From contig CAVPLM010000009.1 in NCBI GenBank assembly GCA_963706025.1, positions 1 through 27,286 of the forward strand: 27,286 nucleotides of DNA, in the 5' to 3' direction. The notes beneath the pieces were generated by a model. The model was not told where the DNA came from. It searched no databases and saw nothing but the letters and a program-made list of their open reading frames with translations. Shown here one piece after another: positions 9,248-26,852 of this stretch (position 1 is its first letter; each line of letters opens with the position of its first letter). The DNA is from an uncultured Actinomycetes bacterium (lineage in GTDB: Bacteria; Actinomycetota; Thermoleophilia; RBG-16-64-13). The position numbers and the translations under genes were made by a program.

Positions 9248-9952
9248 CTATTCTCGGAAACCCAGCGTGCGGGCAAGCTCGACGAGTATCCCCGCTGTGG
9301 CTCCCCAGATGCGGTGGCCCGGGTAGGGTAGGACGTAGAAGTGGCGGCGCGGGCCGGCCTGGACGATGCTCCCGCGGTGATGGTTCGCCGGGTCGAGCAC
9401 GAAGCTCAGAGGTACCTCGAAGATCTCGGCCACCTCGCGCCTGTCAGGCTCGAACTCGACCGGGGGCTCGATCCAACCGACGAAGGGATACACCTGGAAG
9501 CCCGTGACTGTCTCGTGGGGTGGGAGGCAACCCAAGATCTCCACCCTCTCTGGAGCCAAGCCGATCTCCTCGAAGGCCTCGCGCAGAGCGGCCCCCGCAG
9601 GACCGTCGTCATCGGCTTCGACCCGGCCTCCGGGCAGGCTGATCTCCGCCGGGTGATTGTTCAGGTCGGCGGTCCGCTGGGTCAGGATGATCGACGGGCC
9701 CTCAGGATGCCCGAGCAACCCGATCAGGACCGCCGCGGGGATCCCTTGCGCCGCCGGCGACCCCGACTGCCCGGCCGACCCCGGGGGCTCGGCCAACCCC
9801 GAGCTCCCGGCAGGCCCCGAGCTCCCGGCCGGCGGACATGTGCCGTGTAGCAGACGCCGCAGTTCTTCCCGGTCTGGCGGTCGACCGCTCGATCCCGGCG
9901 AAATCCGCAGTTCTGGCCTGTCCTTGCTCGCGGGAATAGATCCCCTCCTCAC
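9248..9952 (-). CDS. CoA pyrophosphatase, Nudix family (NudL/YeaB-like)
   Basis: AAVLIGL, ILTQRTADLNNHPAEISLPGG, Nudix box AALREAFEEIGL, IWGATAGIL; start uncertain (GTG 9952); appears fused to the upstream gene only through a frameshift. Confidence 0.88.
   Translation of the reverse strand: MRRGSIPASKDRPELRISPGSSGRPPDREELRRLLHGTCPPAGSSGPAGSSGLAEPPGSAGQSGSPAAQGIPAAVLIGLLGHPEGPSIILTQRTADLNNHPAEISLPGGRVEADDDGPAGAALREAFEEIGLAPERVEILGCLPPHETVTGFQVYPFVGWIEPPVEFEPDRREVAEIFEVPLSFVLDPANHHRGSIVQAGPRRHFYVLPYPGHRIWGATAGILVELARTLGFRE
9797..9832. repeat. 18-bp tandem duplication (PAGSSG x2) in the Nudix N-terminal region
   Basis: ccccgagctcccggcagg / ccccgagctcccggccgg. Confidence 0.8.
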
Positions 9953-9969
9953 CTGCCGCGCCCCCGACG

Positions 9970-12046: not shown

Positions 12047-12047
12047 T
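11988..12047. repeat. 15-bp tandem repeat x4 (VSSGA) containing the glycosyltransferase start codon
   Basis: gcgccgctgctcact x3 plus gccccgctgctcact. Confidence 0.92.
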
Positions 12048-12188
12048 ACTACTCTCCTTCGGCGGTGGAGGTGGTGTGACGTACTCTTTTGGAAGGATAT
12101 CCCGGATCGTATAAAGCCGGCGTATGGAGCGACGCACGGACGCACGGTGTTTCGCATCCCCGTGAGCGCGGGTAGTTCACTCGGCAAG

Positions 12189-12210
12189 GAGCCCGGGACG
12201 TTCCGGGCTC
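12189..12210. promoter_or_regulatory. Inverted repeat upstream of the VOC gene (operator or RNA hairpin)
   Basis: gagcccgg-gacgtt-ccgggctc, perfect 8-bp arms, 30 nt upstream of the start. Confidence 0.4.
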
Positions 12211-12239
12211 GAGTTGAAGAGTGGAATGAGGTGATCGCT

Positions 12240-12641
12240 GTGGCAGCGCTCGGTGACACGATGGTCTGCGGGGTCCTCCGTGCGGAAGACTATGACCGCG
12301 CCAAGAAGTTCTACACAGAGGTACTGGGGCTGACTCCGGCGCAGGAGTCTCCCGGTCCCACCCGCGAGGGGATGTTCTCAGCGGGAGGGGGCACGATGGT
12401 GTCCATATACGAGCGGCCAGGTATGCCGGCTCCCGAAAACACGACTCTGGCCTTCGGAGTGCCGGCCGACAAGTTCGATGCCCTGGCGGATGAAGTCCGC
12501 GCCCGGGGCGTGGTGTTCGAGGACTATGACATCCCGGAGATCGGCCTGAAGACGGTCAACGGGATCGTCGAGCTCAGTGGCGGCAAAGCAGCCTGGTTCA
12601 AGGATTCCGAGGGCAACATCATCAGCCTCATGTCGATGTGA
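12240..12641 (+). CDS. VOC (glyoxalase/bleomycin-resistance) family protein
   Basis: DYDRAKKFYTEVLGL, RARGVVFEDYD, KAAWFKDSEGNIISL; GAGGTGA RBS before GTG 12240. Confidence 0.9.
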   Translation: MAALGDTMVCGVLRAEDYDRAKKFYTEVLGLTPAQESPGPTREGMFSAGGGTMVSIYERPGMPAPENTTLAFGVPADKFDALADEVRARGVVFEDYDIPEIGLKTVNGIVELSGGKAAWFKDSEGNIISLMSM

Positions 12642-12680: not shown

Positions 12681-12727
12681 TGTGGCATAGTGACACAATG
12701 AATGCCACAATGTTACAAAGTGGTACC
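12681..12727. promoter_or_regulatory. Candidate antitoxin operator array upstream of phd-vapC
   Basis: Inverted repeat tgtggcat-N13-atgccaca plus direct repeats tgacacaat / tgccacaat / tgttacaaa in an AT-richer patch. Confidence 0.6.
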
Positions 12728-12743
12728 GGCCAGGGGGCAGGCG

Positions 12744-12971
12744 ATGAGGAATATGTCGATCAGAGAATTGAGGGAGTCGCTCTCATCGATCAGCGAGATC
12801 CTCGAGAGGGACGGCGAGGTCGTGCTGACGCGTCATGGGCGGGCCTTGGTAAGACTGGTTCCTCTGAATCCGTCCCACTCCGCTCCCAGTCACGCCGATC
12901 TGCGCGCCGGCATGCCCCGCATGACCGTTCCCAGCGAGGAGCTCGTCCGGGCTGATCGGGAGATGGGGTAG
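12744..12971 (+). CDS. Type II TA antitoxin, Phd/YefM family
   Basis: MRNMSIRELRESLS..GEVVLTRHGRALVRLVP, C-terminal SEELVRADR; upstream of a PIN gene. Confidence 0.85.
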   Translation: MRNMSIRELRESLSSISEILERDGEVVLTRHGRALVRLVPLNPSHSAPSHADLRAGMPRMTVPSEELVRADREMG

Positions 12972-12976
12972 CCGCG

Positions 12977-13408
12977 ACGAGCGTCTAGTTCGACATCAGC
13001 GCCCTCGCGAAGTGGTACCTCAATGAGGAGCAGTCTGAAGATGTGGAGGAGTATCTCGGGCAGGTCTGCCCGGTCTACATAAGCCTTCTCACCAAGGCGG
13101 AGATGAGGTCGCTGATGGCCAGGCGCACACGGGAGGGCCATGTAGATTCGGAGACCCAGGGCAAGATCCTCGCGACCTTCGAAGGCGACGTCGCGATGGG
13201 CCATCTCGTACTTCTACCGCATACCGTGGGGTCGTTCCTGATCGCGGAATCGTTGTTGGGGGCGCACCCCGACATCCCACTCCGCACCCTCGACGCCCTA
13301 CATCTCGGGGTGATGCGATCCTCGGGTATGACCACCCTTGCCACCGCCGATCGGGTGATGGCTCAGGCCGCCGCGGTCCTAGGCATGGAGTGCCGGGTCT
13401 TCTTCTAG
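12977..13408 (+). pseudogene. vapC: VapC PIN-domain toxin, disrupted (ACG at expected start, in-frame TAG 12986-12988)
   Basis: Reads (T)SV*FDISALAKWYLNE..KAEMRS..LRTLDALHLG..ATADRV; the family pattern is MxxYxDTSALxK; the four acidic PIN residues remain. Confidence 0.8.
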
Positions 13409-13895
13409 TCGCCGACCACCCGATACATATACGACACCCACTGGTTGGCCACTTTGCCGTCCTTGACCTCCAGCACCACCATATACAAATCGCGCCCCAC
13501 CCGCACCGGGCCGGCTATGTACCGCGCGCCGTTGTATGCCTGGCTCAGGGCCTCGATGTCTTCTGCGGAGGGAACGTAGGTGAACGTCTCGTCTCCATGG
13601 GCGTTGGGTCGACCGGATACTGTGCTACCAGGTTGCTGATCTCCTCGATGCCGTTGGAAACAGCGGGCTCAGCGCCTTCCGGCCAGCGGATAACGGCATC
13701 GGCTGTATAGACCTCCTTGGCCGCGGCCACGTCGTTGGAGATCCAGGCCGCCCCCATCTTGTCGAACAGAGCCTGATCATCGCCCCCGCCGCCGCAGCCA
13801 CCCACTGCCAGCGCGGCCGCGGCCAACACCAGCACCACCGCGGCGACCAGCAGCCACCGGTTGACTCGACCACGCAACATGAATCCGGCTTTCAC
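13405..13895 (-). CDS. Lipoprotein with single SnoaL/NTF2-like domain (module 1), apparent frameshift ~13597
   Basis: Signal peptide with lipobox AVGGC; AAWISNDVAAAKEVYTADAVI; after the shift GDETFTY..MVVLEVKDGKVANQWV..GD*; strong RBS AAAGGAAAAGGGG. Confidence 0.72.
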
Positions 13896-13926
13896 GACGC
13901 ACCCCTTTCCTTTCTAGCCTCGCCCA

Positions 13927-15942
13927 CTATTCGCTCTTGGGCACCCACTTGAAGAGGCCGCCGGTGGTGGTGGCGTAAAGCCCTCCGCTGGAGGCGGGAT
14001 CGATAACGATGTTGAGGTACCCCGTGTCGGGCAGCTCCCCCATGATGTTCTCCCAGGTGGCTCCTCCGTCGACGGAGCGATACATGCCTGCTTTCGCTAC
14101 GCTTTCGACCACTTGGGACGTGAGCACGTACAGCGTGTCGGGTGATCGAGGATCGAACAGCAGCTGCTGGATGTACTTCGCGGGGCCTTCGAGGTCGACC
14201 TTCTGCCACGTCGCTCCCCCGTCGACGGAGCGGGAGACCGAGTACGCGCCGGTATCCGAGCACTGGACCGCGTAGACGCCGAAGGGGTCATGCGGATCTA
14301 CCGCGATGTCTACGACCGCGTCTACCCACTCCTCGGGAGAAACGACCGTCCACGTGCCTCCCGTGTCTATCGATTTGAACACCTGGCTCGACACAGCAGC
14401 GAAGAGGGTGGAGGGTGTCTTCGGGTCGGCGGCGACGCAGGTCGCCCCTTCAAGGACCTCGCTCCAGGTGTTCCCGCCATCGGTGGATCTGGATAGACCA
14501 CTCTCCGGGCCCGTGACGCCCGCCGCCATGGCGAACACGATATCGGGGTTGTCGACCGCGACGAGAGCCAGCCCCCGTGCGGTGGGCCCGCTCAGGCCCT
14601 GGCCGGCCAGCCCGACCCAATTCAGCCCGCCGTCGTCGCTACGGAACGGTCCAATGGAGGTCCACGCATAGAGTCTCGATGGAGTCGAGGGCGCCAGGGC
14701 CACGGAGCCCTCGCCCGCCAGGATCAGGGTCCACTCCACGCCACCATCGGTGGATCGGAAGATGCCGGCGGTCGTGGCGGCGTAGAGAGTCGAGGGAGTA
14801 AGCGGATCGACTGCAAATCTGCTGATCGCCGGAACCCCGAAGCCGGTGCTCGCCTTCCTCCAGCTCCGGCCGCCGTCGATGGATTTGTACACACCGTCCA
14901 TGGTCGGGGCGTAGAGAATCGAGGGTTGATCGGGGTCAACGATCACCGATTCAGCCCTGGTGCCTTCGGGGACGCCATTACCGGCCGGGACGACCCCGAC
15001 GACGGCACCGGTGTCCGCATCGGTCACGGTGCCTTCAAAAGAAGCGAGGAAAGCATCGAGAGCCTGCTGCGCGGCGGCGGGCAAGGGGGGCTTGACGGCG
15101 GCGCCGACCTCGGGGACCACATCTTCCTGGCTGAGCTCGGTCCAGGTCTCGCCCCGATCGGTCGAGCGTAACACGTTCGCCGATTGGTCGCAGATGTACA
15201 CGGTGGAAGGAGAGGATGTAGCGTCGACCCACATGATGGGGGGCCACACCATTATCTTCGTGTTCGGAGGCATTGTCTCGGTCAGATCCGCCCAGGTGGC
15301 GCCGCCGTCATCCGACCGAAGCACCGGGCGGGACGTGGCATCGTCCAATGGGCCCATGATCACATAGACAGTGGACGGAGCAGCGGGATCGAGGATGAGC
15401 AGGTCCACATGGCCCGCAAGCGCTGAGAAGTCCAAGGTTTGCTTCCAGCTCCCCGCGCCATCACTCGACTTAAATAGGCCGGCAGCCGTTTCGGCGTAAA
15501 GGTCCGACGGATTGCGGGGGTCCAACACCAGGGTGCGGGGGTCCAACACCAGGGTGTTGATGGGAATACCAGCGCGCGCCAACGGCAGGCGCTCCCAGTA
15601 CCCGCTTTCCGTGCTGCTCCCCGTCCCCTGGCCGCCGGTATCGAGGTCGGTGTCGTCGGTGATCCTCAGCACGAAGTCCGGTCGGGTCAGATTCCGAACC
15701 GCCACGAAGCTCCCAATGGCTACGGCAGCTACGAGGACCACGGCGACCGACGCAAAGACCGCCACGCGCAGGTTGAGTCCCCGCGGCCTCCTCGCGCCGG
15801 GCTGGGCGCCTTCTTGGCCTCGCTCCCCGATGGCCCAGTGTTCGCCCCCGGCCCGCGCCTCGATCGCGGCCCACACCCCGCGCCGATCCACGGGCCCGGA
15901 AAGCCGTCTCAGGGTCTCTTCGAATTCCCAGTCCTCATTCAT
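13927..15942 (-). CDS. Single-pass membrane protein with extracellular BNR/Asp-box (YCF48/VPS10-like) beta-propeller, candidate anti-sigma (module 1)
   Basis: About 55-aa cytoplasmic N-terminus (EETLRRL..VWAAIEAR), one TM helix, about ten SxDGGxTW boxes alternating with DPxxPxxLY; overlaps the sigma stop by 8 nt. Confidence 0.8.
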   Translation of the reverse strand: MNEDWEFEETLRRLSGPVDRRGVWAAIEARAGGEHWAIGERGQEGAQPGARRPRGLNLRVAVFASVAVVLVAAVAIGSFVAVRNLTRPDFVLRITDDTDLDTGGQGTGSSTESGYWERLPLARAGIPINTLVLDPRTLVLDPRNPSDLYAETAAGLFKSSDGAGSWKQTLDFSALAGHVDLLILDPAAPSTVYVIMGPLDDATSRPVLRSDDGGATWADLTETMPPNTKIMVWPPIMWVDATSSPSTVYICDQSANVLRSTDRGETWTELSQEDVVPEVGAAVKPPLPAAAQQALDAFLASFEGTVTDADTGAVVGVVPAGNGVPEGTRAESVIVDPDQPSILYAPTMDGVYKSIDGGRSWRKASTGFGVPAISRFAVDPLTPSTLYAATTAGIFRSTDGGVEWTLILAGEGSVALAPSTPSRLYAWTSIGPFRSDDGGLNWVGLAGQGLSGPTARGLALVAVDNPDIVFAMAAGVTGPESGLSRSTDGGNTWSEVLEGATCVAADPKTPSTLFAAVSSQVFKSIDTGGTWTVVSPEEWVDAVVDIAVDPHDPFGVYAVQCSDTGAYSVSRSVDGGATWQKVDLEGPAKYIQQLLFDPRSPDTLYVLTSQVVESVAKAGMYRSVDGGATWENIMGELPDTGYLNIVIDPASSGGLYATTTGGLFKWVPKSE
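13941..14514. repeat. Near-identical direct repeat, copy 1 (3' part of propeller gene)
   Basis: Aligns without gaps to 22788..23361 (offset 8847); about 18 mismatches in 574 bp by manual count. Confidence 0.92.
15514..15555. repeat. 21-bp exact tandem duplication (TLVLDPR x2)
   Basis: gcgggggtccaacaccagggt x2; single copy in the paralog. Confidence 0.9.
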
Positions 15943-16510
15943 CGCGCGCTTCCTTGTAAGTCTCCTTGAGGGTCTCTCGGGCCCGGTGCAGATGCTGCTT
16001 GACCGTGCCCTCCGACACGTGCATGACGTCGGCCACTTCCCGAGTGTTCAAATGGTCCATGTAGTAAAGGGCGAGTGCGGTGCGCTGTTTGAGCGGAAGA
16101 GCTGCCAGTTGCTCCCACAGCCGTTCGTCGCTAGCCGAGGCTCCACCCGGAGTATGGGACTGCTGCTCGATCTTAAGCAGAAGCCTTGCCTGTCTCCAGA
16201 GCGAACGGTGATGGTCGCGGATCTGGTTCAGCGCGACTCTGCGAACCCATCCGGCCGGATCCTCGTAGGTGGATAGACGGTCCCAACCACGAACAAGGCG
16301 GACAAAAGCCTCTTGAACGGCGTCGGCGGCCGTCTCCCGATTGCCGGCCGCGATCGTCAGCGCCTGGACCAGACGGTCGTAGTTCTGCTCGAAGACGTCT
16401 TCGGGACAGAAGTAGCGCGCGTGCCCCCCGATCGTGCTCTCCCCTATCGACCAGTCGCTCAAGCCGGTCACGCTCCCGGTCTTCGAAAACGCTCTGCCAC
16501 CTGTGTGCAC
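15935..16510 (-). CDS. ECF RNA polymerase sigma factor, SigE-like (module 1)
   Basis: Region 2 AADAVQEAFVRLVRGWDRL..DPAGWVRRVALN; region 4 LAALPLKQRTALALYY..EVADVMHVSEGTVKQHLHRAR. Confidence 0.92.
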   Translation of the reverse strand: MHTGGRAFSKTGSVTGLSDWSIGESTIGGHARYFCPEDVFEQNYDRLVQALTIAAGNRETAADAVQEAFVRLVRGWDRLSTYEDPAGWVRRVALNQIRDHHRSLWRQARLLLKIEQQSHTPGGASASDERLWEQLAALPLKQRTALALYYMDHLNTREVADVMHVSEGTVKQHLHRARETLKETYKEARDE

Positions 16511-16548
16511 CGAGCCGGTCCTATTCCCTCGATTGTCCTACTTTCGAG

Positions 16549-16581
16549 ATAGACACGCACAGAGGGACCGATTAGTTGACA
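16549..16581 (-). promoter_or_regulatory. Putative autoregulatory ECF promoter of module 1
   Basis: TGTCAAC-N17-CGTGTCTAT (AAC..CGT ECF pattern); conserved at 25497..25529. Confidence 0.62.
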
Positions 16582-16775
16582 GGAGCGCGCGGCGCCCCGG
16601 GGGTGGGGTGCCCGCGGGGCCCAGCAGGGGGCGCGGGCAGGAGCGTCGCGCGGGCGGAGACGCCGTGCCAGCCCGTGTTCCGCGATGGTGTGTTCGAGCC
16701 GGGAAAGGCAGAGAAGCCGGGGCGCCGCGGACCATGCCGGTATGCGACCGCCGCGTCACGGCAGGAGATCGACCG

Positions 16776-16969
16776 ATGCCATACTACGAGTTGCACGAGG
16801 CGATGGACTGGGCCGGCGTCATAGGCGAGTGGAAGATCGAAGTTCTTGAAGAGATCGAAGCGACCTACGCGCAGTGGAGCTTGCCGGCGCCCTCAGCCCG
16901 AGCATCCGCGTTTCTCGCTTCGAGCGCCCCGTCGAGATACGAGGCGGCCGCCGCTCGAGAGAAGCCTAG
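16776..16969 (+). CDS. Small hypothetical protein (~64 aa if one missing G ~16877 is restored; runs to 17090 as sequenced)
   Basis: AGGAG RBS 8 nt before ATG; MPYYELHEAMDWAGVIGEWKIEVLEEIEATYAQW; corrected frame stops at a CTAG shared with the convergent gene's stop. Confidence 0.5.
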
Positions 16970-19644
16970 AGGCAGGCCTGGACCCGATTGCGACCGAGAC
17001 GCTTGGCCTCGTACATCGCAGTGTCCGCTCTTTCTATCAGCTCCGCTCTGGACGCCGCATGAGCGGGGAAGAGAGCAACGCCGATGCTGACGGTGACGGG
17101 ATCGGTCCCGACCACCAGAGGAGATCTCGCTACGTTAGCCCGGATACGGTCGGCCACCTGCATGCCGCTGCCCAGATCGCAGTCGGACAGCACCGCCACG
17201 AACTCCTCGCCTCCGTAGCGGGCGACGATGTCGCCCCGGCGGATCTGGCCCTCGATGATGTGGGCGACTGCGCGGAGAACCTCGTCTCCGAGCGAATGGC
17301 CCCAGCGATCGTTGAAGGCCTTGAAGTGATCGATATCGATAAAGAGAACTGCGAACTCCGATCGCCGCTCGATCGCCTTGGACACCTCGCCGGCGAGATG
17401 CTCGTGCAGATAGCGGTGGTTGTAGATACCGGTAAGACCGTCGATCGTGGCCTCGAACTCGGCCCGAGCGATGCGCTTGGTCACCTCTCCGAGCAAGGAG
17501 GCCATTGATGCGGGTGCGGCGTCCTCGCCATCGTGGACCGGAGAGGGCCGAGCCGGAGAATCAGCGGCGATCAGTCCCACTATGTTCCCTTCGCCATCGC
17601 GTAGCGGGGCCGAGGCTGTGATCCAGACACCGAACTCGTCCGCGTACAGTGCGTTCCTGTCTGCCTGCAACCCTGCAAGTACCTCTCGCATCTCGTCGTC
17701 GACGGCGAACAACTCGTCCCCGATGTGGGATTTGCGTTGCTCGATCTCTTCCGGATCCACGACAAAAACTACCCTGGAACCTACCTTCCTCTGCGTGGTC
17801 AGAAAACGGATCCCCTCACTCGCCCTCAGCACGTCCCGAAGAACTCCGGCGATCTCGCGGTACTCGGGCCGCTGTTCGTCCTCCCTTGTCTTCAGCCGTT
17901 CGTGCTTGTCGCCGTCGACGAGCGCTGCGGCTTTCTCGGCGACACTCAGGCACACCCTTCTTCGCCGGTCCATGTCGTCCAGCACGTCCAGGAACGCGTC
18001 CACGATCTCGGGATCGAAATGCGAACCGCGGCCGTTCTTCAACTCCTCCCGGCAATCCGCGTACCGGAGAGCCTGCCGGTAGGGGCGCAGACAAGACATA
18101 GCGTCGTAGGCATCGACCACGCACATGGCGCGGGCCATGAGGGGGATGTCCTCTCCCTTCAGACCGTACGGGTAGCCGCCCCCGTCGTATCTCTCGTGAT
18201 GATGACGGATCGCGTCGGTCTGCTCCTCTTGCACCATGCTCTGCAGGATGTCCGCGCTTGTCTCGGGGTGGGCGCGCATGATCATCCATTCTCGCTCCGA
18301 GAGTGGACCGGTCTTGTGCAGGATGGCGTCGGAAACGATCAGCTTGCCGATGTCGTGCAGGTATCCCGCCTCCTCCGCCCGTTGCACCGTGTCTTCGCTC
18401 CAGCCGAGTTTCGTTCCCAAGAGCGATAGATACTGGGCGACGCGGGCACCGTGACCTTGCGTATACCATTCCTTGGCCCCCAGCGCACTGACCAGCGCTT
18501 GCAGTCCCGCGACGTGGACGCGACGCAACTCCTGGTACTGCCGAGCGTTATGTATGGCCAGGCCGGCTTGTTCCGCCAACCCGCGGGCGAACTCGATATC
18601 GGCGTCGCTGAAGAGTCGATCCCTAGTGCACTGCGATATGACCATCGTACCGAGTCTCGAACGACCAAAAGGAAGGGGGATGATCAGGCGGCTTCTCTCT
18701 CCGCTTTCCTCCATCTCGGCCTTCACTGCCGGGTCCAGGTCGGGATCCTGTGAGCGCTGCTGGAGAACCCGCTCGCCCTGAAGTCCTCCAGTCCCTCCAA
18801 CGCCGGCCGTGGAAGGCCCGTCATCCTCCTCTCCGCGCTGGTACATGGTGCATCCGTCGCAGTCAAGAGCGGTGATGGCCTGATTCGCGACCGCCTCGAG
18901 CACCTCGTCCAAGTCCAGGCTGGAATTGATCACCCGGTTCGCGTGGAGGAGAGAGGTGAGCCTCACATTCCGTTCGTCCGTCTGCCGAAGCAACTGCGCA
19001 GAGTGTATGGCTTGGCCGGCGAGGGCGGCCAAGCCACGCGCCAGGGCCATCTGCGCATCGTCGAATTCCCTCTCCTCCTCTGCGTCGTAGAAAGCCATGA
19101 GCCCCATGCGCTGAGAGCCGACCAGGAGCGGTATCGAGAGGCACGTCTTTTCGCCCCACTTCTGCATGCTTTCCAGGCTCTCCAGAGCCAGATCAGGGTC
19201 CGAGATCCTCTCCAGAAGGGGTCGTCCACTCGCTAGAACGGCCTTCTCTGCAGGACACTCCGAGAGTGGCAATCGCTCGCCCAGACCCTCCCAGCCGGAC
19301 GGCACCCGCTCGTAGATCGCCAACGGGACGATGGTGCTCGAAGGGGCATCGTACTCATACACGATGCATTCCGGTACTTGCAGAGTTTCGGACGCGTGCC
19401 AGACCAGCATCTTCAGGGCTTCTTCCAGGCTCTCAGACTCGGCAGCAGCTCGACTCGCCTCCATGAGCGAAAGCAGCGCGTCCTGCGAAGCCCAGGGATC
19501 TCCCCGGAGCGGAGAGACCGTTCGAACCGGAGTCTGAGGGGCGTCTACAGGGGAGTGTGCCACGCAGCCGGAGCCGGAGGGGTGGTCGCGAGCGCCGCTG
19601 CAGGCAGCGGTATTGGCGATATCTTCCTTGATCCAAGTACTCAT
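16966..19644 (-). CDS. c-di-GMP enzyme: GAF-GAF-HD-GYP-(Cache-like)-GGDEF
   Basis: Two GAF-like segments (CLSIPLLVG..MGLM; LIIPLPFG..LGTM); HD-GYP motifs HGARV, LHDIGK, HHERYDGGGYP, DAYDAM..RPYR; DGLTGIYN, DIDHFKAFND, RRGD I-site, RYGGEEF; ATG 19644 chosen because of the promoter position. Confidence 0.9.
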   Translation of the reverse strand: MSTWIKEDIANTAACSGARDHPSGSGCVAHSPVDAPQTPVRTVSPLRGDPWASQDALLSLMEASRAAAESESLEEALKMLVWHASETLQVPECIVYEYDAPSSTIVPLAIYERVPSGWEGLGERLPLSECPAEKAVLASGRPLLERISDPDLALESLESMQKWGEKTCLSIPLLVGSQRMGLMAFYDAEEEREFDDAQMALARGLAALAGQAIHSAQLLRQTDERNVRLTSLLHANRVINSSLDLDEVLEAVANQAITALDCDGCTMYQRGEEDDGPSTAGVGGTGGLQGERVLQQRSQDPDLDPAVKAEMEESGERSRLIIPLPFGRSRLGTMVISQCTRDRLFSDADIEFARGLAEQAGLAIHNARQYQELRRVHVAGLQALVSALGAKEWYTQGHGARVAQYLSLLGTKLGWSEDTVQRAEEAGYLHDIGKLIVSDAILHKTGPLSEREWMIMRAHPETSADILQSMVQEEQTDAIRHHHERYDGGGYPYGLKGEDIPLMARAMCVVDAYDAMSCLRPYRQALRYADCREELKNGRGSHFDPEIVDAFLDVLDDMDRRRRVCLSVAEKAAALVDGDKHERLKTREDEQRPEYREIAGVLRDVLRASEGIRFLTTQRKVGSRVVFVVDPEEIEQRKSHIGDELFAVDDEMREVLAGLQADRNALYADEFGVWITASAPLRDGEGNIVGLIAADSPARPSPVHDGEDAAPASMASLLGEVTKRIARAEFEATIDGLTGIYNHRYLHEHLAGEVSKAIERRSEFAVLFIDIDHFKAFNDRWGHSLGDEVLRAVAHIIEGQIRRGDIVARYGGEEFVAVLSDCDLGSGMQVADRIRANVARSPLVVGTDPVTVSIGVALFPAHAASRAELIERADTAMYEAKRLGRNRVQACL

Positions 19645-19680
19645 GGCGCACACCCCGGGACTGCGACTACCTCCCATGGA

Positions 19681-19708
19681 TAATCGACCGCGCGGGGCGC
19701 AGGGTTTA
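19681..19708 (-). promoter_or_regulatory. sigma28-type promoter for the HD-GYP/GGDEF gene
   Basis: Minus strand TAAA-N16-GTCGATTA (6/8 to GCCGATAA), 36 nt upstream of ATG 19644, same distance as at the DUF4388 gene. Confidence 0.6.
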
Positions 19709-19793
19709 GAGCCGAGGAACTTGGGGTCCTGCTCGAGACCACGAGGGAGGAACAGCGGTGCCCGGTGACCGGCTCTCGAGTGACGCGCGGTGC

Positions 19794-19822
19794 TTGACAA
19801 CAATGGCACTGCTGTCTACGGT
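19794..19822 (+). promoter_or_regulatory. Housekeeping sigma70-type promoter for the SLH protein gene
   Basis: TTGACA-N17-TACGGT. Confidence 0.65.
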
Positions 19823-19904
19823 TTCGGAAAAAGGAAGGATGGACTGGGGGTGGACGGGCATGGGTACAGCGAGAGCAGTCAGCCGGTCGCCAAGAGGTGG
19901 TCGG

Positions 19905-21587
19905 ATGGGCGAACGGGTCCGGTTGGGTAGCGGCGGTGTGACCGTCCGAGCGGCGCTGCCGGCTGGGCTGACGTTATTGCTGACGGTCGCCCTGGTCTTC
20001 GCGTTCGGTGTGCTGAGGGCGACGGACGCTCGCGCCTCTGTCGTGCTTTGCGACGTCGTTTCGTCCTCGGTCCAATTCAGTGATATTGGCTCGTCGCCGT
20101 ACAAGACCGCTATCGAGGCCCTTGCGTCAGCGCAGATCATCAACGGTTACGCGGACGGCACGTTCCGTCCGGACGACCCCGTCATCCGCCAGCAGTTCGC
20201 CAAGATGATCGTCCTGAGCCTGGGTCTGACCGTCAAGCTCACCGACGTATGCCCATTCGCCGATGTGGTGGATGGTGGTGGCATCGATCCCCTCTACCCG
20301 GCGCACTACGTTGCCGTCTGTGCGTCGAACAAGATCACCGAAGGCAAGAGTCCCGGCAGATTCGACCCCTATGAGAACATCACCCGGGCCCAGATCGCGA
20401 GCATGGTGGTCCGCGCCGCACAAGGGCTGGCCCCGGCGGTCCTGACCACTTCGAATGTCGCAGGAGCTCTCCTATATGACGCCCCGCCCCACACCGAGAA
20501 CCTTGCCAAAGCCACGGTGAACGGGCTGCTCAACGGTCTTGCAGGGTTCGGAAAAGCAGGCTGGGACCCCTGGAAAGATTCCACCCGAGGCGAGGTGGCC
20601 CAGGTGCTCTACAACCTGCGCGAACGGGCCAGGCCCGGTTCGCTCCTTTACTCCGACCAGCTTCTGACTCCCTCCGGCAACTGGCAGGACGTTTCCACGG
20701 GCGGCGCCCATTTCGACTACGAAGTGGCGGGCTATGTGGGAGAGGCGGCTTCCGGGGGCCAGGCTTCCGAGGCTCGGACGAAGCTGACCGGCTTGTACGC
20801 TGATTTCAGGGCCGAGTTCACGGCCACTCCGCTGTCGGGCGCCAACCCCGGGTTCGGCATATGCGTGAGGACCGATCCGACCACCGGCGATCCCGCGACG
20901 GGAGGCGGTTACCGCTTCTTGGTGCTTGCGAACAACCACCTCCAGTACTCCAGGTGGGGCGCCGGCGGAGAGCTGGAGGAGACCGGCGACGTCGCTCTAC
21001 CTGTGCCTCAGGGGATCGTGGCCCAGGGGATGCAGCCGGGCGACCTAGCGGTCCTGGGTAAACAGAACACCGTCACCTGCTACTGGAACGGCACAAAGGT
21101 GGTGCAGCTCACCGGCTCCCCGAGCACTCCACAAGCCGGAGCCGTGTCCTTGGTCGTGAACGGAGGGGGATCCGCGGCCCAAGTCTCGTTCAGTGAGTTC
21201 AAGATCCTGAACGCCGGTAACGCCACCACGTACAACGTCACCATCAACGCCATCGACAAGAACGGCACTCGTGTGGGATCGGTCCACACCGGTGACGTGG
21301 TGGACGTGCAGGCCTCCGGGACCTGGGACATGGGCAACGGCAACATCGGGGGACCGGACGGCATCGTCATGCCGCACCCGGACGAGTCCGACGTGATCCT
21401 CGTCACCGAGCCCATCGGAGAGCTGATCGCGCGTATCGGGCCTCAGCTGTTGCCGGTGGGGAGCAACAGGACCTTCGCCGTGCCACGGGACGGCGATCTC
21501 TATCTGCTCTTCAACGACCGGCCGGATTACTACGGAGACAACGCGGGCTCCGTAAGTGTCCACGTGACTGTGTACTCGGCGCAATAG
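19905..21587 (+). CDS. SLH-domain surface protein with DUF1080/ConA-like beta-sandwich and C-terminal LecA (PA-IL)-like lectin domain
   Basis: Signal peptide; SLH repeats FSDI..IINGYADGTFRPDDPVIRQQFA, ITRAQIA, STRGEVA; C-terminus GELIARIG..GDLYLLFNDRPDYYGDNAGSVSV resembles LecA LIYNDVPGTYGNNSGSFSV; GAGG RBS before ATG 19905. Confidence 0.8.
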   Translation: MGERVRLGSGGVTVRAALPAGLTLLLTVALVFAFGVLRATDARASVVLCDVVSSSVQFSDIGSSPYKTAIEALASAQIINGYADGTFRPDDPVIRQQFAKMIVLSLGLTVKLTDVCPFADVVDGGGIDPLYPAHYVAVCASNKITEGKSPGRFDPYENITRAQIASMVVRAAQGLAPAVLTTSNVAGALLYDAPPHTENLAKATVNGLLNGLAGFGKAGWDPWKDSTRGEVAQVLYNLRERARPGSLLYSDQLLTPSGNWQDVSTGGAHFDYEVAGYVGEAASGGQASEARTKLTGLYADFRAEFTATPLSGANPGFGICVRTDPTTGDPATGGGYRFLVLANNHLQYSRWGAGGELEETGDVALPVPQGIVAQGMQPGDLAVLGKQNTVTCYWNGTKVVQLTGSPSTPQAGAVSLVVNGGGSAAQVSFSEFKILNAGNATTYNVTINAIDKNGTRVGSVHTGDVVDVQASGTWDMGNGNIGGPDGIVMPHPDESDVILVTEPIGELIARIGPQLLPVGSNRTFAVPRDGDLYLLFNDRPDYYGDNAGSVSVHVTVYSAQ

Positions 21588-21643
21588 CAGGAGATCGGTT
21601 CCTTTGCCGGGCTGACGGGTGCCACACCCAGGCGCTGCCGGAC

Positions 21644-22693
21644 TCACTGCACGAGCCCCGACGCCAGGAGGCTGTCGGCGTCGTAGAACACTTCCTCCCG
21701 GGTGATGAGACCGTGCGGATCGATGTCGAACGATTTCTCATGCCTGGTGCCGAGCTCGAAGGTGGTGAGGCTCTCGACGCTTGTCGGTATGCCCGCCACC
21801 ACCAGGTTGCACCGGTAGTGGATCCCCACCGCGATGATGGCCCCCTGCTCGGGTGGTTGCTCGGCAGACGGGTCGAGGCCGTCGTTGGTCTGGACGTAGA
21901 GGTCGATCACCTCGAGCGTGAGCGGGCCGCCCGACCCGAACCGCGTGTCGCCCAGCTCACCGATGGCGGCCGCTCCCTGGGCCTGAATGCCCCGCATGGT
22001 GTCGGAGAACACGGCGTCGTCGCGGTAGAGGGCGGCGATCCGGTCTTTGTCCCCCGAGGACCAGGCCGCGAGATACCGGTCGGCGATCGCCCACAGCTGT
22101 TCGGAGCCGCCTTCACCCGGGGCGAAACATGCCATCGACAGCATCTCGAGAGTCGCCGGCACAGCCCAGATTTCCCAACTGGCTACCAGGCCGTCCTTGA
22201 ACCGGAACAGTTCGAGCGCGCGCACCGGAGGATGATTCGCCGGCTCCGGCAACCCGGGGGGCCACAGGTTCTCCATCACGCCGTTGTAGGCGGCACCATC
22301 CGCCGAGAGGTACACCGCTTTCTGGCGGAACCTATAGTCGGGAAAGGAGGAGAACATGGACCGGGTGAGCGCAACTACCTGCTGCTTGCCCTCAATGAGA
22401 AAGTCACCGTCGCCCGGGTCGTAGAAGGCGATATTGTCGGCGAACTCGGGAAAAGTAGCGCTAACGTCCCCGTACATACCGAAGAACCGGTCGGCGAAGG
22501 CGACTGCATCCGTCTTCCACTGAGCGATCTCGGCCCGCGACATCGGTTCTTCACCGCCGCATGCGGCCACCGGACCCACCAACCCGGCGGCCAGCACAAC
22601 GATCGAGGCGAGGAGCCACCGTTTGGCGAGGAGCCACCGTTTGGCGAGGAGCCATCGTTTGACAGTGCCGCTCGGCAGAAACTTGGCTCCCAT
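21644..22693 (-). CDS. Lipoprotein with two SnoaL/NTF2-like domains (module 2)
   Basis: Lipobox VAAC; domain 1 FADNIAFYDP..EGKQQV..FPD..FRFKDGLVASW; domain 2 DRYLAAWSSGD..LYRDDAVFSD..GLITREEVFYD; GGAGGGG RBS before ATG 22693. Confidence 0.78.
   Translation of the reverse strand: MGAKFLPSGTVKRWLLAKRWLLAKRWLLASIVVLAAGLVGPVAACGGEEPMSRAEIAQWKTDAVAFADRFFGMYGDVSATFPEFADNIAFYDPGDGDFLIEGKQQVVALTRSMFSSFPDYRFRQKAVYLSADGAAYNGVMENLWPPGLPEPANHPPVRALELFRFKDGLVASWEIWAVPATLEMLSMACFAPGEGGSEQLWAIADRYLAAWSSGDKDRIAALYRDDAVFSDTMRGIQAQGAAAIGELGDTRFGSGGPLTLEVIDLYVQTNDGLDPSAEQPPEQGAIIAVGIHYRCNLVVAGIPTSVESLTTFELGTRHEKSFDIDPHGLITREEVFYDADSLLASGLVQ
22607..22660. repeat. 18-bp tandem repeat x3 (KRWLLA) in the lipoprotein signal peptide
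   Basis: ggcgaggagccaccgttt x2 plus ggcgaggagccatcgttt. Confidence 0.92.
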
Positions 22694-22773
22694 CGCACAC
22701 CCCCTCCGATCTGGATTCTCGTCCTTGGTTACGCCGGTCACCCCAACTCAGGCTTTGTACCAAGTCACCAGTG

Positions 22774-24886
22774 CTAGTTGCTGCCCTGCACCCATTTGAA
22801 GACGCCGCCGGTGGTGGTGGCGTAAAGCCCTCCGCTGGAGGCGGGATCGATAACGATGTTGAGGTACCCCGTGTCGGGCAGCTCCCCCATGATGTTCTCC
22901 CAGGTGGCTCCTCCGTCGACGGAGCGATAGATGCCTGCTTTCGCTACGCTTTCGACCACTTGGGACGTGACCACGTACAGCGTGTCGGGTGACCGAGGAT
23001 CAAACAGCAACTGCTGGATGTACTTCGCGGGGCCTTCGAGGTCGACCTTCTGCCACGTCGCTCCCCCGTCGACGGAGCGGGAGACCGAGTACGCGCCGGT
23101 ATCCGAGCACTGGACCGCGTAGACGCCGGAGGGGTCATGCGGATCTACCGCGATGTCTACGACCGCATCCACCCACTCCTCGGGAGAGACGACCGTCCAC
23201 GTGCCTCCCGTGTCTGTCGATTTGAACACCCGGCTCGAGGCGGCAGCGAAGAGGGTGGAGGGTGTCTTCGGGTCGGCGACGACGCAGGTCGCCCCTTCAA
23301 GGACCTCGCTCCAGGTGTTCCCGCCATCGGTGGATCTGGATAGACCACCCTCCGGGCCCGTCAGGCTCGCCGCCATCGTGGGCGTTGCGAACACGATATC
23401 GGGGTTGTCGGCCGCGACGCTGAGCAGGGCACTTGCGGTGGGTCCGCTCAGGCCCACACCCGTCAGCCCGGCCCAATTCTCCCCGCCATCGTCGCTACGG
23501 AACAGTCCAATGGAGGTCCACGCGTAGAGTCTCGATGGAGTCGAGGGCGCCAGGGCCACGGAGCCCTCGCCCGCCAGGATCAGGGTCCAGTCTGTTCCGC
23601 CATCGGTGGATCGGAAGATCCCGGCGCTCGTGGCCGCGTACAGAGTCGAGGGAGTAATCGGATCGACTAGAAAGCTGCTGACTGCCGGAATTCCCGAAGC
23701 CGGTGCTCGCCTTCCTCCAGCTCCGCCCGCCGTCGGTGGATTTGTACACGCCCTCCATGGTCGGCGCGTAGAGGATCGAGGGTTGATCGGGGTCAACGAT
23801 CACCGATCCAGCCCTGGCGCCATCGGAGGCAGATACCCCACCAGGTAGCCCGTTGTTGCCAGGGACGACGCCGACAACAGCGCCCGTGTCCGCATCGGTC
23901 ACGGTGCCGTCAAAGGAAGCCAGGAACGCATCAAGAGCCTGCTGCGCAGCGGCGGGCAGGCTGGAAACACCGTCGCGATAGGCATGTTCGCGAAGGTCCT
24001 CAACACCCGTGCCGCCCATAGCTTGGTCTGCCTCTTCCTCGGTAAGCCCGGTCCAGGTCTCGCCCCGGTCGGTCGAGCGGTACCACCCACTGTTCCCAAA
24101 CATGAAGACCGTGGAGGGGGTGGATGCCGTGTCAAACGATATAGCTCCGAAATACCCGCTCAATCCCGGGGTGCTTGCGTCGGTCAGGTGCGCCCAGGTG
24201 GCGCCTCCGTCATCAGATCTGAGCAGCTGTGGCGGCCCCGGAGAATCGCCCGACAGCCACGCGATCATGTAGACCGTGGAAGGGGAAGCGGGATCGAATG
24301 CCACCACGAACACCTGGCCCGCAAAGGCCGAGAAACTCAGGGTTTGGTTCCAGCTCCCCGCGCCATCAGTCGACTTGAATAGGCCGGCCGCCGTTTCGGC
24401 GTAGAGGTCCGACGGGGTGCTGGGATCCAAGACCAGGGTCTTGATGGGAACGTCACTGCGCGCCAACGGCAGGCGCTCCCAGTACCCGTTTTGCGCGTCG
24501 TTCCCCGTCGGCTGGCCGCCGGTATCGATGTCGGTGTCGTCGGTGATCCTCAGCACGAAGTCCGGCTTTGCCAGGTATTTGAAAGCTTCGAGGCCGCCCA
24601 AGGCCACGGCGGCCACCAGGACGACGGCGATGGAGGCAAAGACCGCGATGCGCAAGCCGCTCCTCCGCCTCGGCGTGGACGCTCTCGGCGCGGAGGCTTC
24701 TCTGGGCGCGGACGACCGCTTCTGGCCACTAACCCGCTCGTCAACCCCAGCCATCAATGGCCAACGTTCCTGAGATGCTCTCTTATCCTGCTGCGCCCGT
24801 CCCTCGATGACGTCCCATACTCCGCTTGGATCCACGGGCACCGCGAGGCGCTTCAGTCTTTCTTCGAGTTGCCGGTTCCCGTTCAC
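22774..24886 (-). CDS. Single-pass BNR beta-propeller protein, candidate anti-sigma (module 2), apparent frameshift ~23693
   Basis: ORFs 23495..24886 and 22774..23796 join at STGFG/IPAVSS into a full-length paralog of 13927..15942; GTGA overlap with the sigma stop. Confidence 0.8.
22788..23361. repeat. Near-identical direct repeat, copy 2
   Basis: About 97% identical to 13941..14514 by manual alignment. Confidence 0.92.
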
Positions 24887-25467
24887 CGCTGTACCTCCAG
24901 TGTCTCTCGTAGTGTCCGCAGGGCGCGATGCAGGTGCTGGTCGACCGTGCCCTCCGAGACGTGCATGACTTCGGCCACCTCGCGCGCGGTCAAGTCGCCC
25001 ACGTAGTAGAGGGCAACCGCCGCGCGCTGTTTCGGAGGCAGGGCCCTCAGCTGCTCCCAGAGCTCCGGGTCAAGCGACCAGACCTCCTCCGGCACTATGG
25101 GTTGCTGTTCGATCTTGAGCAGGAGTCTGGCTTGTTTCCAGATCGAGCGCTGATGCTCATGGATCTGGTTCAAAGCGACTCGGCGCACCCAGCCGGCTGG
25201 ATCCTCATAGGTGGCTAGACGGTCCCACCCGCGGACAAGGCAGACGAAGGCCTCTTGGACCGCGTCGGCGGCTGTCTCCCGGTCGCCGGCCACGATCGCC
25301 AGGGCTTGGACGAGACGGACGTATTCGTGCTCGAACACGTCTTCGGGGCACGTGTAGCGCGTACGCTCCCGGAGTCTGTCATCGCTCATCGGCCAGTCGC
25401 TCAAACGGGTCACGCTCCCCGCCTTCAACAACGTTTTGCCGTTCGTGTGCACCTTAGTCAGCCCCAT
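24883..25467 (-). CDS. ECF RNA polymerase sigma factor, SigE-like (module 2)
   Basis: Close paralog of 15935..16510 (DAVQEAF, GWDRL, PAGWVRRVALN, LPPKQRAAV, VSEGTVDQHLHRA); alternative start GTG 25452. Confidence 0.92.
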   Translation of the reverse strand: MGLTKVHTNGKTLLKAGSVTRLSDWPMSDDRLRERTRYTCPEDVFEHEYVRLVQALAIVAGDRETAADAVQEAFVCLVRGWDRLATYEDPAGWVRRVALNQIHEHQRSIWKQARLLLKIEQQPIVPEEVWSLDPELWEQLRALPPKQRAAVALYYVGDLTAREVAEVMHVSEGTVDQHLHRALRTLRETLEVQR

Positions 25468-25496
25468 CTCCGCATCCCTATTGTCCTGCTTTCGGC

Positions 25497-25529
25497 ATAG
25501 ACTCGCACGAGGGGGTCAAATCCTTGACA
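25497..25529 (-). promoter_or_regulatory. Putative autoregulatory ECF promoter of module 2
   Basis: TGTCAAG-N17-CGAGTCTAT, same spacing as module 1 with a largely diverged spacer. Confidence 0.58.
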
Positions 25530-25717: not shown

Positions 25718-25945
25718 CTATGACGCCGTGCGCTCCAGCCGCTCGGCGATCCACATCTTGATCAGCGACTGCCTCGTGACTCCGAGACGCTCAGCCTCGC
25801 GGTCGAGCGATTCGACCATCCAGGAGGGGAAGTCGACGTTCACGCGCCGGGCCGTCCGCAGTGGCCGATGTGCAGCCGCCAGGTCGAGATTGTCCGTCAG
25901 ATCGTGGCCCGCATCGAACTTCTCGTCAAACTCTCTAGCCTTCAT
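25718..25945 (-). CDS. brnA: BrnA-type (CopG/RHH) antitoxin
   Basis: MKAREFDEKFDAG..RRVNVDFPSWMVESLDREAERLGVTRQSLIKMWIAERL; 11-nt overlap with the BrnT-like stop. Confidence 0.85.
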   Translation of the reverse strand: MKAREFDEKFDAGHDLTDNLDLAAAHRPLRTARRVNVDFPSWMVESLDREAERLGVTRQSLIKMWIAERLERTAS

Positions 25946-26099
25946 AGATGGCCACCTCCTCGTCGCGGGACCGGCGCACGGAGATCACACGGATCCGGTC
26001 CTTACGGTGGGTGATAACCGCCGACCAGTGTTTGCCGGCGATGGTCCCGATCACCACGAACCGTGATTTGTATTCGGTGTGGACCGTCTCACCGATCAC
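25935..26099 (-). pseudogene. brnT: 5'-truncated BrnT family toxin
   Basis: RFVVIGTIAGKHWSAVITHRKDRIRVISVRRSRDEEVAIYEG matches the BrnT C-terminal half; the N-terminal FEFD..K..N..KHGIDF part is absent and replaced by the mqsA 3' end. Confidence 0.75.
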
Positions 26100-26571
26100 G
26101 ATCGAGCCTGCGAACGGGCGGCCGGGGATCGCGGAGAAGGCACGGAGCTTGCGAGCACTCCCGCGGTTTCGGGCATAGCACGGATCAGCCTCATGAGCCG
26201 GTCGGCGGTCGCGCTCTGAAACACGGTGCCCTTTCCCAACGCACGACGGTCTTCGGGCCAACCCCGATCAGCTTCTCGAACGCGGCTTGCGAAAGATCGA
26301 GCGAGTGCCTCAGTGCCCGGATCTCGTCCGCAGTCAACAGTCCCCGCGCTCGCTTCATGAGCTGGATCGCTTCCTTCTGAAGCTTTTCCATCGCCTCGAC
26401 GCTCAAGAAGGTTTCCCCGCAGTCAGTGCACACCGCGTGTTCGATACCGCTGACCGCGATGGTCTCGCCGCGCATCTCTACTGGCAATGGGTCGCAGGAG
26501 ATCGATACGGTACCGCCGCACGCCCCGCACGTATTGGGAAAAACGTTCACATCAGCCTCCGCAGTGACCAT
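26096..26571 (-). CDS. mqsA: MqsA family antitoxin (YgiT-type zinc finger + HTH), apparent frameshift ~26232
   Basis: CGACG and CTDCGE zinc ligands, LLTADEIRALRHSLDLSQAAFEKLIGVGPKTVVRWE; adding one A gives KGTVFQSATADRLMRLI; TGATG coupling with the upstream gene. Confidence 0.85.
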
Positions 26572-26852
26572 CAATGGGCTGTTCCTTCCCACCAGCACGA
26601 CCACACGTTCACCGCAGCCTGCTCTTCGTCAACATAGATCTTCACGTACCACTCGACACCCTCGACCGCGACGATGTACTCGTCGGCGATCTCACCGTTG
26701 GCGAGGACGCAGGAACCCACCCACACTGCAGATCGGCTCACCCGAACAAGCGTCTTGGTTAGCTGCTCTCTTGCGTCATAACCATGGTTGATGAGCCACC
26801 CTGCGACTCGCAGTGTAGAAACGACCCGGTTCTCGCGTGCGAGTCGACGCAC
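26571..26852 (-). CDS. Divergent MqsR-like toxin (homology extends upstream to PRYDPAL; true start probably ~26896-26914)
   Basis: PRYDPALVRRLARENRVVST, ADEYIV, WYVKI, VWSC parallel MqsR-family motifs; coupled to mqsA. Confidence 0.6.
   Translation of the reverse strand: MRRLARENRVVSTLRVAGWLINHGYDAREQLTKTLVRVSRSAVWVGSCVLANGEIADEYIVAVEGVEWYVKIYVDEEQAAVNVWSCWWEGTAH

Follow-up and report, generated by a model that had tools for sequence, protein, structure and literature searches.

Paralogous ECF128s2-like sigma factor/BNR propeller gene pairs, each followed by a lipoprotein gene of variable cargo, in an uncultured Actinomycetes bacterium

The stretch of DNA analysed here, referred to as the window, comprises positions 1 to 27,286 of contig CAVPLM010000009.1 (27,286 nucleotides (nt); assembly GCA_963706025.1) of an uncultured Actinomycetes bacterium from the Thermoleophilia lineage RBG-16-64-13, and has a G+C content of about 65%. 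On its minus strand, the same order of three genes is found twice (Table 1): a gene for a sigma factor of the extracytoplasmic function (ECF) type, a gene for a membrane protein with a BNR beta-propeller and a gene for a lipoprotein with one or two SnoaL-like domains. This gene order had been noted in an earlier interpretation made from the letters of the DNA (the sequence-only reading); the order is confirmed, but the frames are not all intact, as there is one frameshift in each module. What is new at this locus is the context of the third gene, which is a slot for a lipoprotein with a conserved leader and a variable cargo; the pair of sigma factor and propeller protein has already been catalogued, as a prediction.

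Table 1. Positions of the features of the two modules in the window
Feature	Positions	Strand	Basis or remark
Promoter-like motif, module 1 (GTCAAC-N17-CGTGTCT)	16551..16580	-	about 40 nt upstream of sigma start
ECF sigma 1, 191 amino acids (aa)	15935..16510	-	Pfam Sigma70_r2, r4_2
Putative anti-sigma 1 (transmembrane helix + BNR propeller), 671 aa, gene intact	13927..15942	-	Sortilin-Vps10, BNR
Lipoprotein 1, 491 nt, lipobox ...AVGGC + one SnoaL-like domain, frameshifted	13405..13895	-	intact relatives
Promoter-like motif, module 2 (GTCAAG-N17-CGAGTCT)	25499..25528	-	pattern match
ECF sigma 2, 194 aa	24883..25467	-	Pfam; 67.7% identical to sigma 1 (over 189 aa)
Putative anti-sigma 2 (transmembrane helix + BNR propeller), 2113 nt, two open reading frames	22774..24886	-	similarity to module 1
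Lipoprotein 2, leader + lipobox ...VAAC + tandem SnoaL/NTF2	21644..22693	-	likely ATG 22693; longest open reading frame from 22741
18-nt tandem repeat, 3.1 copies (KRWLLA x3), lipoprotein 2 leader	22607..22661	-	repeat scan, 97% matches

The sigma and propeller genes overlap in both modules, as had been claimed: the stop codon of the sigma gene overlaps the start of the propeller gene by 8 nt in module 1 (ATGAATGA) and by 4 nt in module 2 (GTGA). When the two modules are compared by blastn, the DNA similarity extends from 16566/25513 to 13941/22788, with a match of 74.5% in the sigma part (16566-15851 versus 25513-24795) and of 82.0% in the propeller part (15770-13941 versus 24654-22788), and it ends just before the stop codons of the propeller genes. 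The lipoprotein genes are therefore outside the duplication, and the duplicated unit is the promoter, the sigma gene and the propeller gene, not the three-gene module that had been proposed. Between the propeller stop codon and the start of the lipoprotein gene there are 29 nt in module 1; in module 2 this gap is about 78 nt.

Both sigma factors consist of the sigma2 and sigma4 regions only, each recognised by its Pfam model above the gathering score (for sigma 1 with E-values of 2.6e-11 for Sigma70_r2 and 1e-16 for r4_2), and this composition classifies them as ECF (group 4) sigma factors. With TIGR02937 the two proteins score 80.8 and 72.5 bits (cut-off 42.9), and with the best subfamily model, TIGR02983 (SigE family), they score 101 and 106 bits, which is under the cut-off of 141.55. 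A conserved extension of about 40 residues (...GSVT.LSDW...CPEDVFE..Y) precedes region 2 in sigma 1, in sigma 2 and in the sigma factor (835-1398) of the related locus L001, which is described below.

The propeller protein is probably the cognate anti-sigma factor of the co-encoded sigma factor, as also suggested by the sequence-only reading, and this assignment is well supported by the architecture and by the literature. The gene is translationally coupled to the sigma gene, and the N-terminus of the protein, which is conserved, cytoplasmic and predicted to form two helices, is followed by one transmembrane (TM) helix. In the model of propeller 1 (mean predicted local distance difference test score (pLDDT) of 74.6), two short helices (residues 4-14 and 23-32) are separated by a disordered linker from the TM helix (58-85), behind which there is an ectodomain of about 590 aa that is rich in beta-strands and has nine S-x-[DN]-x-G-x-x-W boxes. 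Residues 1-57 are predicted to be cytoplasmic, and at the N-terminus there is a conserved stretch of about 31 residues. The five N-termini of the two window modules and of the loci L001, L002 and L004 share the pattern MNG.RQLEE.LKRLA.PVD..GVW..IE.RA, with 16 invariant columns, and the length of the linker behind it varies freely in these five sequences. In the ESM Atlas, the named clusters nearest to this N-terminus are DUF4179, DUF3600, RsgI_M and zf-HC2, which are families associated with anti-sigma factors; at 0.78-0.81, below the threshold, they are no more than leads. Propeller 1 is recognised by the Pfam models Sortilin-Vps10 (3e-24) and BNR (2e-12), and the NCBIfam model F510_1955 'glycosylhydrolase' reaches 183 bits with the propeller protein (cut-off 175). 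In a Foldseek search, the top matches of the ectodomain are the GH74 xyloglucanases (E 1e-20, template modelling score 0.28-0.41), which consist of two seven-bladed propellers and have a catalytic Asp pair in the cleft; the fold is also similar to sortilin Vps10p and to BNR proteins with one seven-bladed propeller, of which DAIP is an example. The N-terminal halves of propellers 1 and 2 are 57% identical and the C-terminal halves are 86% identical, a difference that points either to gene conversion in one lobe or to a higher rate of divergence in the other.

A protein search gave 6034 BNR relatives among the 8000 candidates that were scored; 120 propeller relatives are listed, and only the top part of this list covers the N-terminus. 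The combination of this N-terminus, the TM helix and the propeller is present in at least about 50 full-length relatives, which are from Actinomycetota-type metagenome-assembled genomes (MAGs). In the genome scan for related loci, done with an 11-row alignment, 80 loci were kept, and three of these (L001, L002 and L004) match from residue 1 or 9. These three loci belong to Actinomycetes/Actinomycetota MAGs and have a sigma gene, homologous to those of the window, directly upstream of the propeller gene. The other 77 kept loci are generic BNR propellers without the N-terminus and without an adjacent sigma gene. The family is multi-copy, with at least two modules in the window and at least three in the MAG of L001 and L004. 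The best plasmid match, a 313-aa BNR protein in a metal-resistance context of Rubrobacter, is without a sigma gene and is not relevant here.

The motif GTCAA[CG]-N17-CG[TA]GTCT precedes each sigma start at a distance of about 40 nt, with two matches in the window where 0.13 are expected. It is also found once upstream of each sigma gene in L001 and L004. The window and these two loci contain no further match, also not upstream of the lipoprotein genes. Because the motif occurs only before the sigma genes and the gaps before the lipoprotein genes are short, the three genes of each module seem to form a single operon that is autoregulated, being induced by its own sigma factor.

A lipoprotein gene is located directly downstream of the propeller gene in all six modules for which the DNA can be read, and its cargo is a SnoaL-like protein in three, an alpha/beta-hydrolase in two and a protein with PQQ-like repeats in one. 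There is one SnoaL-like domain in window module 1 and there are two in window module 2 and in its orthologue, L004; the cargo of L001 is a BD-FAE/esterase-like alpha/beta-hydrolase with a GHSGG motif, and a hydrolase of the same kind is encoded in a second module upstream of L004; the PQQ-like repeats are those of L002. In both window modules, L001 and the upstream module of L004, the third gene is on the same strand, and the leaders of its products are clearly homologous (M.AK[FC]LP.GKVNRWLL..VVLVVGLGG.VAACGG), with unrelated cargo behind them, and in the third gene of L002 there are leader-like pieces in shifted frames. A phmmer match of L001 with 'SnoaL' is due to the similarity of the leader peptide only, as its actual cargo is the esterase-like hydrolase.

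The signal peptide of bacterial lipoproteins ends with the lipobox motif [LVI][ASTVI][GAS]C, and by inspection such a lipobox is present in both window proteins (lipoprotein 1, ...LAVGGC; lipoprotein 2, ...PVAAC), as expected for bacterial lipoproteins. The lipobox cysteine is nearly invariant in 36 relatives of the two-domain protein, in which a Thr-rich linker is usually found behind the leader. The longest open reading frame (ORF) of lipoprotein 2 has 365 aa; its start is probably the ATG at 22693, behind GGAGGGGG, rather than position 22741. The KRWLLA sequence, which is repeated in the leader of lipoprotein 2, is also present in three copies in the leader of L004, and in one copy in the other leaders of the family.

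The two lipoproteins of the window had been described as a one-domain and a two-domain SnoaL protein that are weakly related, and this description is borne out, with E-values of 5e-4 and 0.002 and with part of the similarity in the leader. In lipoprotein 2, SnoaL_2 is recognised (4e-17) in two stretches, with 63 bits versus a cut-off of 27. The broken fragment of lipoprotein 1 reaches only 16.9 bits with SnoaL_2; its family has 11 relatives, of about 160 aa, and in five of these 11 PF12680 is found. The two-domain family is small, with 69 matches in a word-indexed search and 44 matches below 1e-30 among 1.84 billion cluster representatives. The AlphaFold2 model of lipoprotein 2 (pLDDT 85.7, predicted template modelling score 0.80) has a tandem NTF2-like fold, with the alpha+beta cone that is typical of the SnoaL/NTF2-like superfamily. 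The best matches in the Protein Data Bank (PDB) are the polyether epoxide hydrolases Lsd19 and MonBI-MonBII (PDB entries 3rga, 4rzm and 9kw6; E of about 1e-11, template modelling score 0.64-0.69 by target length), which have the same two-domain NTF2-like architecture, but are cytoplasmic biosynthetic enzymes with an identity to lipoprotein 2 of 13-17%. When considering the single domains, ketosteroid isomerases are the next matches. Because of these similarities in fold, it is plausible that the modelled lipoprotein 2 has a pocket for a small hydrophobic molecule. To this extent the fold fits the earlier proposal that a SnoaL pocket could bind a small hydrophobic ligand; a SnoaL lipoprotein is not a constant partner of the propeller.

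Further information on the third gene comes from protein records, where relatives of the lipoproteins and propellers of the family are found on contigs of the same size. There are six such cases for the two-domain protein (P0124 with P0002 and P0023, P0125/P0003, P0128/P0004, P0148/P0034, P0146/P0043 and P0141/P0084) and two for the one-domain protein (P0304/P0019 and P0305/P0020). The evidence that the partners of these eight pairings share a contig is circumstantial; on contigs of 3.6-5.9 kb, such genes must be close to each other. A quick maximum-likelihood tree was made of 46 propellers, picked from the 120 listed relatives for coverage or known cargo, with P0017 and P0071 trimmed to the propeller part. 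In this tree, three separate supported clades have the one-domain cargo, while there are four places with the two-domain cargo and two with the hydrolase. This scatter indicates that the cargo has been swapped repeatedly in evolution, with the reservation that gene conversion, of the kind suggested by the unequal identities of the two propeller halves, can distort such trees. It is also in line with the earlier suggestion that the lipoprotein is exchangeable, as four types of cargo are found at the third position.

In some relatives the propeller and the cargo are joined. In the protein P0071 (735 aa), the N-terminus of the family and the TM helix precede half a propeller, to which the two-domain SnoaL part is connected by a Thr-rich linker; when compared with its closest relatives it has three deletions, and it may be an assembly artefact. 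The lipoprotein P0228 (548 aa) has a propeller of the Reg_prop type together with the same two-domain SnoaL family, which is a second, independent combination of a propeller and SnoaL. In the propeller-esterase fusion P0017 (1067 aa), the intergenic stretch and the signal peptide are translated through, and this is probably a case of a lost stop codon. For the ectodomain of P0003 (78-663) and the two-domain SnoaL part of P0125 (84-383), chosen as a cognate intact pair, both on 4419-nt contigs, a complex prediction gave a score of 0.00 without controls, which does not count for binding or against it.

The sigma/propeller pair has a counterpart in the published classification of ECF sigma factors. 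Group ECF128 is described as occurring in Actinobacteria only, and the membrane protein at position +1 of subgroup ECF128s2 has been proposed as its anti-sigma factor, which is a prediction only (Casas-Pastor et al. 2021, NAR, PMC7826278 supplement). This +1 protein is described as a single-pass protein with a conserved cytoplasmic N-terminus without Pfam domain and with extracytoplasmic BNR/Asp-box, sortilin and/or YCF48 repeats; at position +2 there is an ATP-grasp protein, and the predicted promoter has CCAACC at -35 and GGCGTC at -10 (PMC7826278). The +1 protein of the window has the same build, being a single-pass TM protein with a conserved N-terminus without Pfam domain and with a BNR/sortilin ectodomain. 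The actinobacterial restriction is also shared, although this likeness is indirect: the loci with the same architecture are from Actinomycetes/Actinomycetota MAGs, and the named protein matches are from Actinobacteria/Thermoleophilia. In the best reading, the window pair is ECF128s2-like, with a putative membership based on architecture. The statement of the sequence-only reading that this architecture is undescribed can consequently not be maintained for the pair of sigma factor and TM BNR protein, which is present in the supplement of PMC7826278, but it stands for the triad with the lipoprotein. An annotated ECF group context was among the outcomes that the sequence-only reading had named as refuting it, and this outcome applies to the pair and not to the triad. 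The supplementary text of PMC7826278 names no lipoprotein or SnoaL protein for ECF128, and in literature searches on ECF, anti-sigma, BNR, SnoaL and ECF128 no paper was found that describes a triad of sigma factor, propeller and lipoprotein.

The interpretation that we prefer, and to which we give about as much chance of being right as of being wrong, is that the window carries two paralogous sigma/anti-sigma operons of the ECF128s2 kind, with a third cistron for a membrane-anchored lipoprotein of variable cargo that functions as an induced surface effector. The two-helix cytoplasmic N-terminus of the propeller protein would hold the co-translated sigma factor at the membrane, and the GH74/sortilin-like BNR ectodomain would perceive an extracytoplasmic cue, probably a glycan or an envelope-derived molecule. 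The released sigma factor would transcribe its own operon from the GTCAAS-N17-CGWGTCT promoter, such that the expression of the sigma factor, the anti-sigma factor and the lipoprotein would rise together. The lipoprotein would be the sole non-regulatory product of the operon, with the SnoaL/NTF2 fold and a putative pocket for a hydrophobic molecule in the window, and with an esterase-like hydrolase or a PQQ-like propeller in the relatives. The gene order, the overlaps, the domains, the folds, the variable third position with its homologous leader and the promoter-like motif are observed; we infer that the sigma factor is bound and then released by a signal, that the operon is autoregulated and that the lipoprotein is an effector. 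The lipoprotein is read as an induced surface effector because it is the only non-regulatory product of an operon that seems self-contained and because probable enzymes, with folds that are not related, are found among its types of cargo.

Several observations weigh against this interpretation. When compared with ECF128s2, the window has a SnoaL-like lipoprotein at position +2 (hydrolase-like or PQQ-like in the relatives) and not the published ATP-grasp protein, and the motif GTCAAS-N17-CGWGTCT differs from the published CCAACC and GGCGTC, with only the CAAC and GCGT-like cores in common (comparisons with PMC7826278). The propeller N-terminus (residues 1-57) has no Pfam match and no recognisable class I (zinc-binding, RsrA-like) anti-sigma domain of the zf-HC2/RskA type, and in a profile search of the PDB with the five N-termini there was no credible match, the best being ribosomal protein S21 with an E-value of 0.29; the binding of the sigma factor by this N-terminus is inferred from the gene arrangement and the conservation. 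The context of the third gene is thin, as it consists of six modules read from DNA and the eight pairings from protein records with same-size contigs. The effector role is assigned to the lipoprotein by default, and the propeller-SnoaL fusions P0071 and P0228 are easier to explain if the lipoprotein is a physical partner than if it is only an output. With real frameshifts, none of the two modules would be complete.

It is also possible, although with distinctly less probability, that the lipoprotein is a co-sensor, which docks on the propeller ectodomain and whose cargo sets the ligand that controls the release of the sigma factor, by analogy with the three-component sensor sigmaE-RseA-RseB. 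The position of the lipoprotein gene immediately behind the propeller gene in the six readable modules, the leader that is kept across four types of cargo and the eight same-size contig pairings would all be in agreement with such a role, as would the two fusions, one of which joins the TM-propeller of this family with the two-domain SnoaL part in one polypeptide and the other a Reg_prop propeller with the same SnoaL family in a lipoprotein. The tandem NTF2 fold, moreover, resembles Lsd19/MonB, which bind hydrophobic polyethers. The precedent is RseB, the extracytoplasmic co-regulator at +2 in ECF02, which binds and stabilises the anti-sigma ectodomain (PMC7826278 supplement). The order of sigma factor, single-pass anti-sigma factor and exported +2 protein is indeed the same in the proteobacterial system as in the window. 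A co-regulator of the RseB kind would bind the ectodomain of the anti-sigma factor and modulate its cleavage, and it is the gene order and the two fusion proteins that bear on this here. However, RseB is a conserved, soluble periplasmic family, whereas the +2 proteins of the window type are lipid-anchored, are exchanged and have unrelated folds (NTF2, alpha/beta-hydrolase, PQQ-like); their cargo changes fold class, also to a probable esterase, and does not track the propeller tree, whereas known co-regulators such as RseB are conserved partners. The fusions are also affected by the possible artefact in P0071 and the apparent loss of a stop codon in P0017. In ECF41, ECF56, ECF294 and ECF295, an SnoaL/NTF2 domain is also tied to an ECF sigma system, but there it is fused to the sigma factor, is cytoplasmic and replaces the anti-sigma factor, whereas here it is exported as a separate lipoprotein beside an anti-sigma candidate (PMC7826278, PMC7730460). 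A more specific form of the co-sensor idea, which we consider rather doubtful, is that the third gene is a plug-in slot for co-receptors, with a conserved leader and junction and a swappable, ligand-binding or ligand-generating cargo (NTF2, esterase or PQQ-like). The cargo would bind the propeller at its N-terminal lobe, which is variable, and each ECF module would in this way be adapted to another extracellular cue. An actinobacterial ECF operon with a lipoprotein gene beside the sigma gene is the sigE-cseA-cseB-cseC operon of Streptomyces, where the lipoprotein CseA modulates the signal; this system differs in that it is controlled by a two-component system, without a membrane anti-sigma factor, and in that CseA is not known to be SnoaL-like.

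The frameshifts allow another explanation, namely that the modules are decaying paralogues, remnants of an expanded family and not two working systems, with the lipoprotein lost from module 1 and the anti-sigma factor from module 2. This we consider rather unlikely, even though each module has one frameshift, the ORF of a nearby PIN toxin is also disrupted and redundancy in a multi-copy family could permit loss. In lipoprotein 1, one base is missing near 13595-13598 (GG/GGG run), such that the ORF 13545..13895 departs from the family sequence right behind ...DPTP; the rest of the gene is in another frame, which ends at 13405 with a normal C-terminus. In propeller 2, one extra base near 23689-23695 splits the gene into the ORFs 23495..24886 and 22774..23796. 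Intact relatives exist for both broken genes, and apart from the single indels, which are both in short base runs (GG/GGG and AA), both remain family-like in the shifted frame to their normal end. The orthologous propeller gene of L004, from another MAG, has three frameshifts (7171-7200, 7376-7395 and 7489-7520), at least one of them at a homopolymer and one within about 10 nt of the break in the window, and in the protein P0301 there is a truncation only a few codons away from where lipoprotein 1 is broken, as is typical of consensus errors. Because of the base runs, the family-like shifted frames, the indels of L004 and the truncation of P0301, both frameshifts are more likely consensus or assembly errors than real inactivation. 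The recurrence of breaks at nearly the same places in different assemblies could point to a systematic consensus error, which is a guess. Methylation sites were considered as a cause, as the breaks are in GAATTC and CCATGG, and this was rejected: six of the seven GAATTC and eight of the nine CCATGG sites of the window are away from the breaks. In addition, the loss of an anti-sigma factor leaves the sigma factor unrestrained, which is usually costly.

It is improbable that the propeller is a membrane-anchored glycoside hydrolase or binding protein instead of an anti-sigma factor, with the three genes being merely co-expressed envelope genes. The GH74 xyloglucanases as best structural matches, the score of F510_1955 above its cut-off and the N-terminus without a known anti-sigma domain would fit this, but the template modelling scores to GH74 are low, the cytoplasmic N-terminus is conserved while the linker behind it varies freely, the propeller start overlaps the sigma stop in both modules, and the generic BNR propellers of the genome scan lack both the N-terminus and the adjacent sigma gene.

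ECF sigma factors are among the commonest signalling devices of bacteria, yet for most of the actinobacterial groups, of which ECF128 is one, it is not known what serves as their input. A fixed sigma/anti-sigma core with a lipoprotein slot that has been refilled repeatedly provides a set of natural variants, with which it can be studied what is sensed by a BNR-propeller anti-sigma factor and whether the exported neighbour belongs to the response or to the sensor. With the lipoprotein as no more than an induced product, as in the interpretation that we prefer, the result refines the ECF128s2 context in a useful but ordinary way. Should the lipoprotein prove to be a co-receptor, it would be the equivalent of RseB in a Gram-positive bacterium, with a specificity that can be exchanged, and possibly a scaffold for engineered sensors; the plug-in slot, if true, would be a modular three-component sigma switch that has not been described for any ECF group.

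Several other genes surround the two modules. Next to module 1, a Phd/YefM-like antitoxin gene (12702..12971) is followed by the ORF of the PIN toxin, which ends at 13408, where it converges on and overlaps the end of the lipoprotein 1 gene; an in-frame TAG (12986-12988) directly before the conserved FDISAL leaves this ORF without a proper start. Upstream of module 2 (25720-26604) there are a BrnT-like toxin gene (25935..26261), followed by a small CopG/BrnA-like ORF, and an MqsA-like antitoxin gene (26191..26604). Between the modules, a 947-aa GAF-GAF-HD-GGDEF protein, which is likely a cyclic-di-GMP signalling enzyme, is encoded at 16966-19809, and a 609-aa protein with SLH domains and a C-terminal PA-IL-like lectin domain at 19758-21587. 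SLH proteins also flank the module of L001, which suggests an envelope that bears an S-layer. At 9248-12259, a 1003-aa protein is encoded in which a PMT_2 (dolichyl-phosphate-mannose-type) glycosyltransferase is fused to a C-terminal NUDIX domain.

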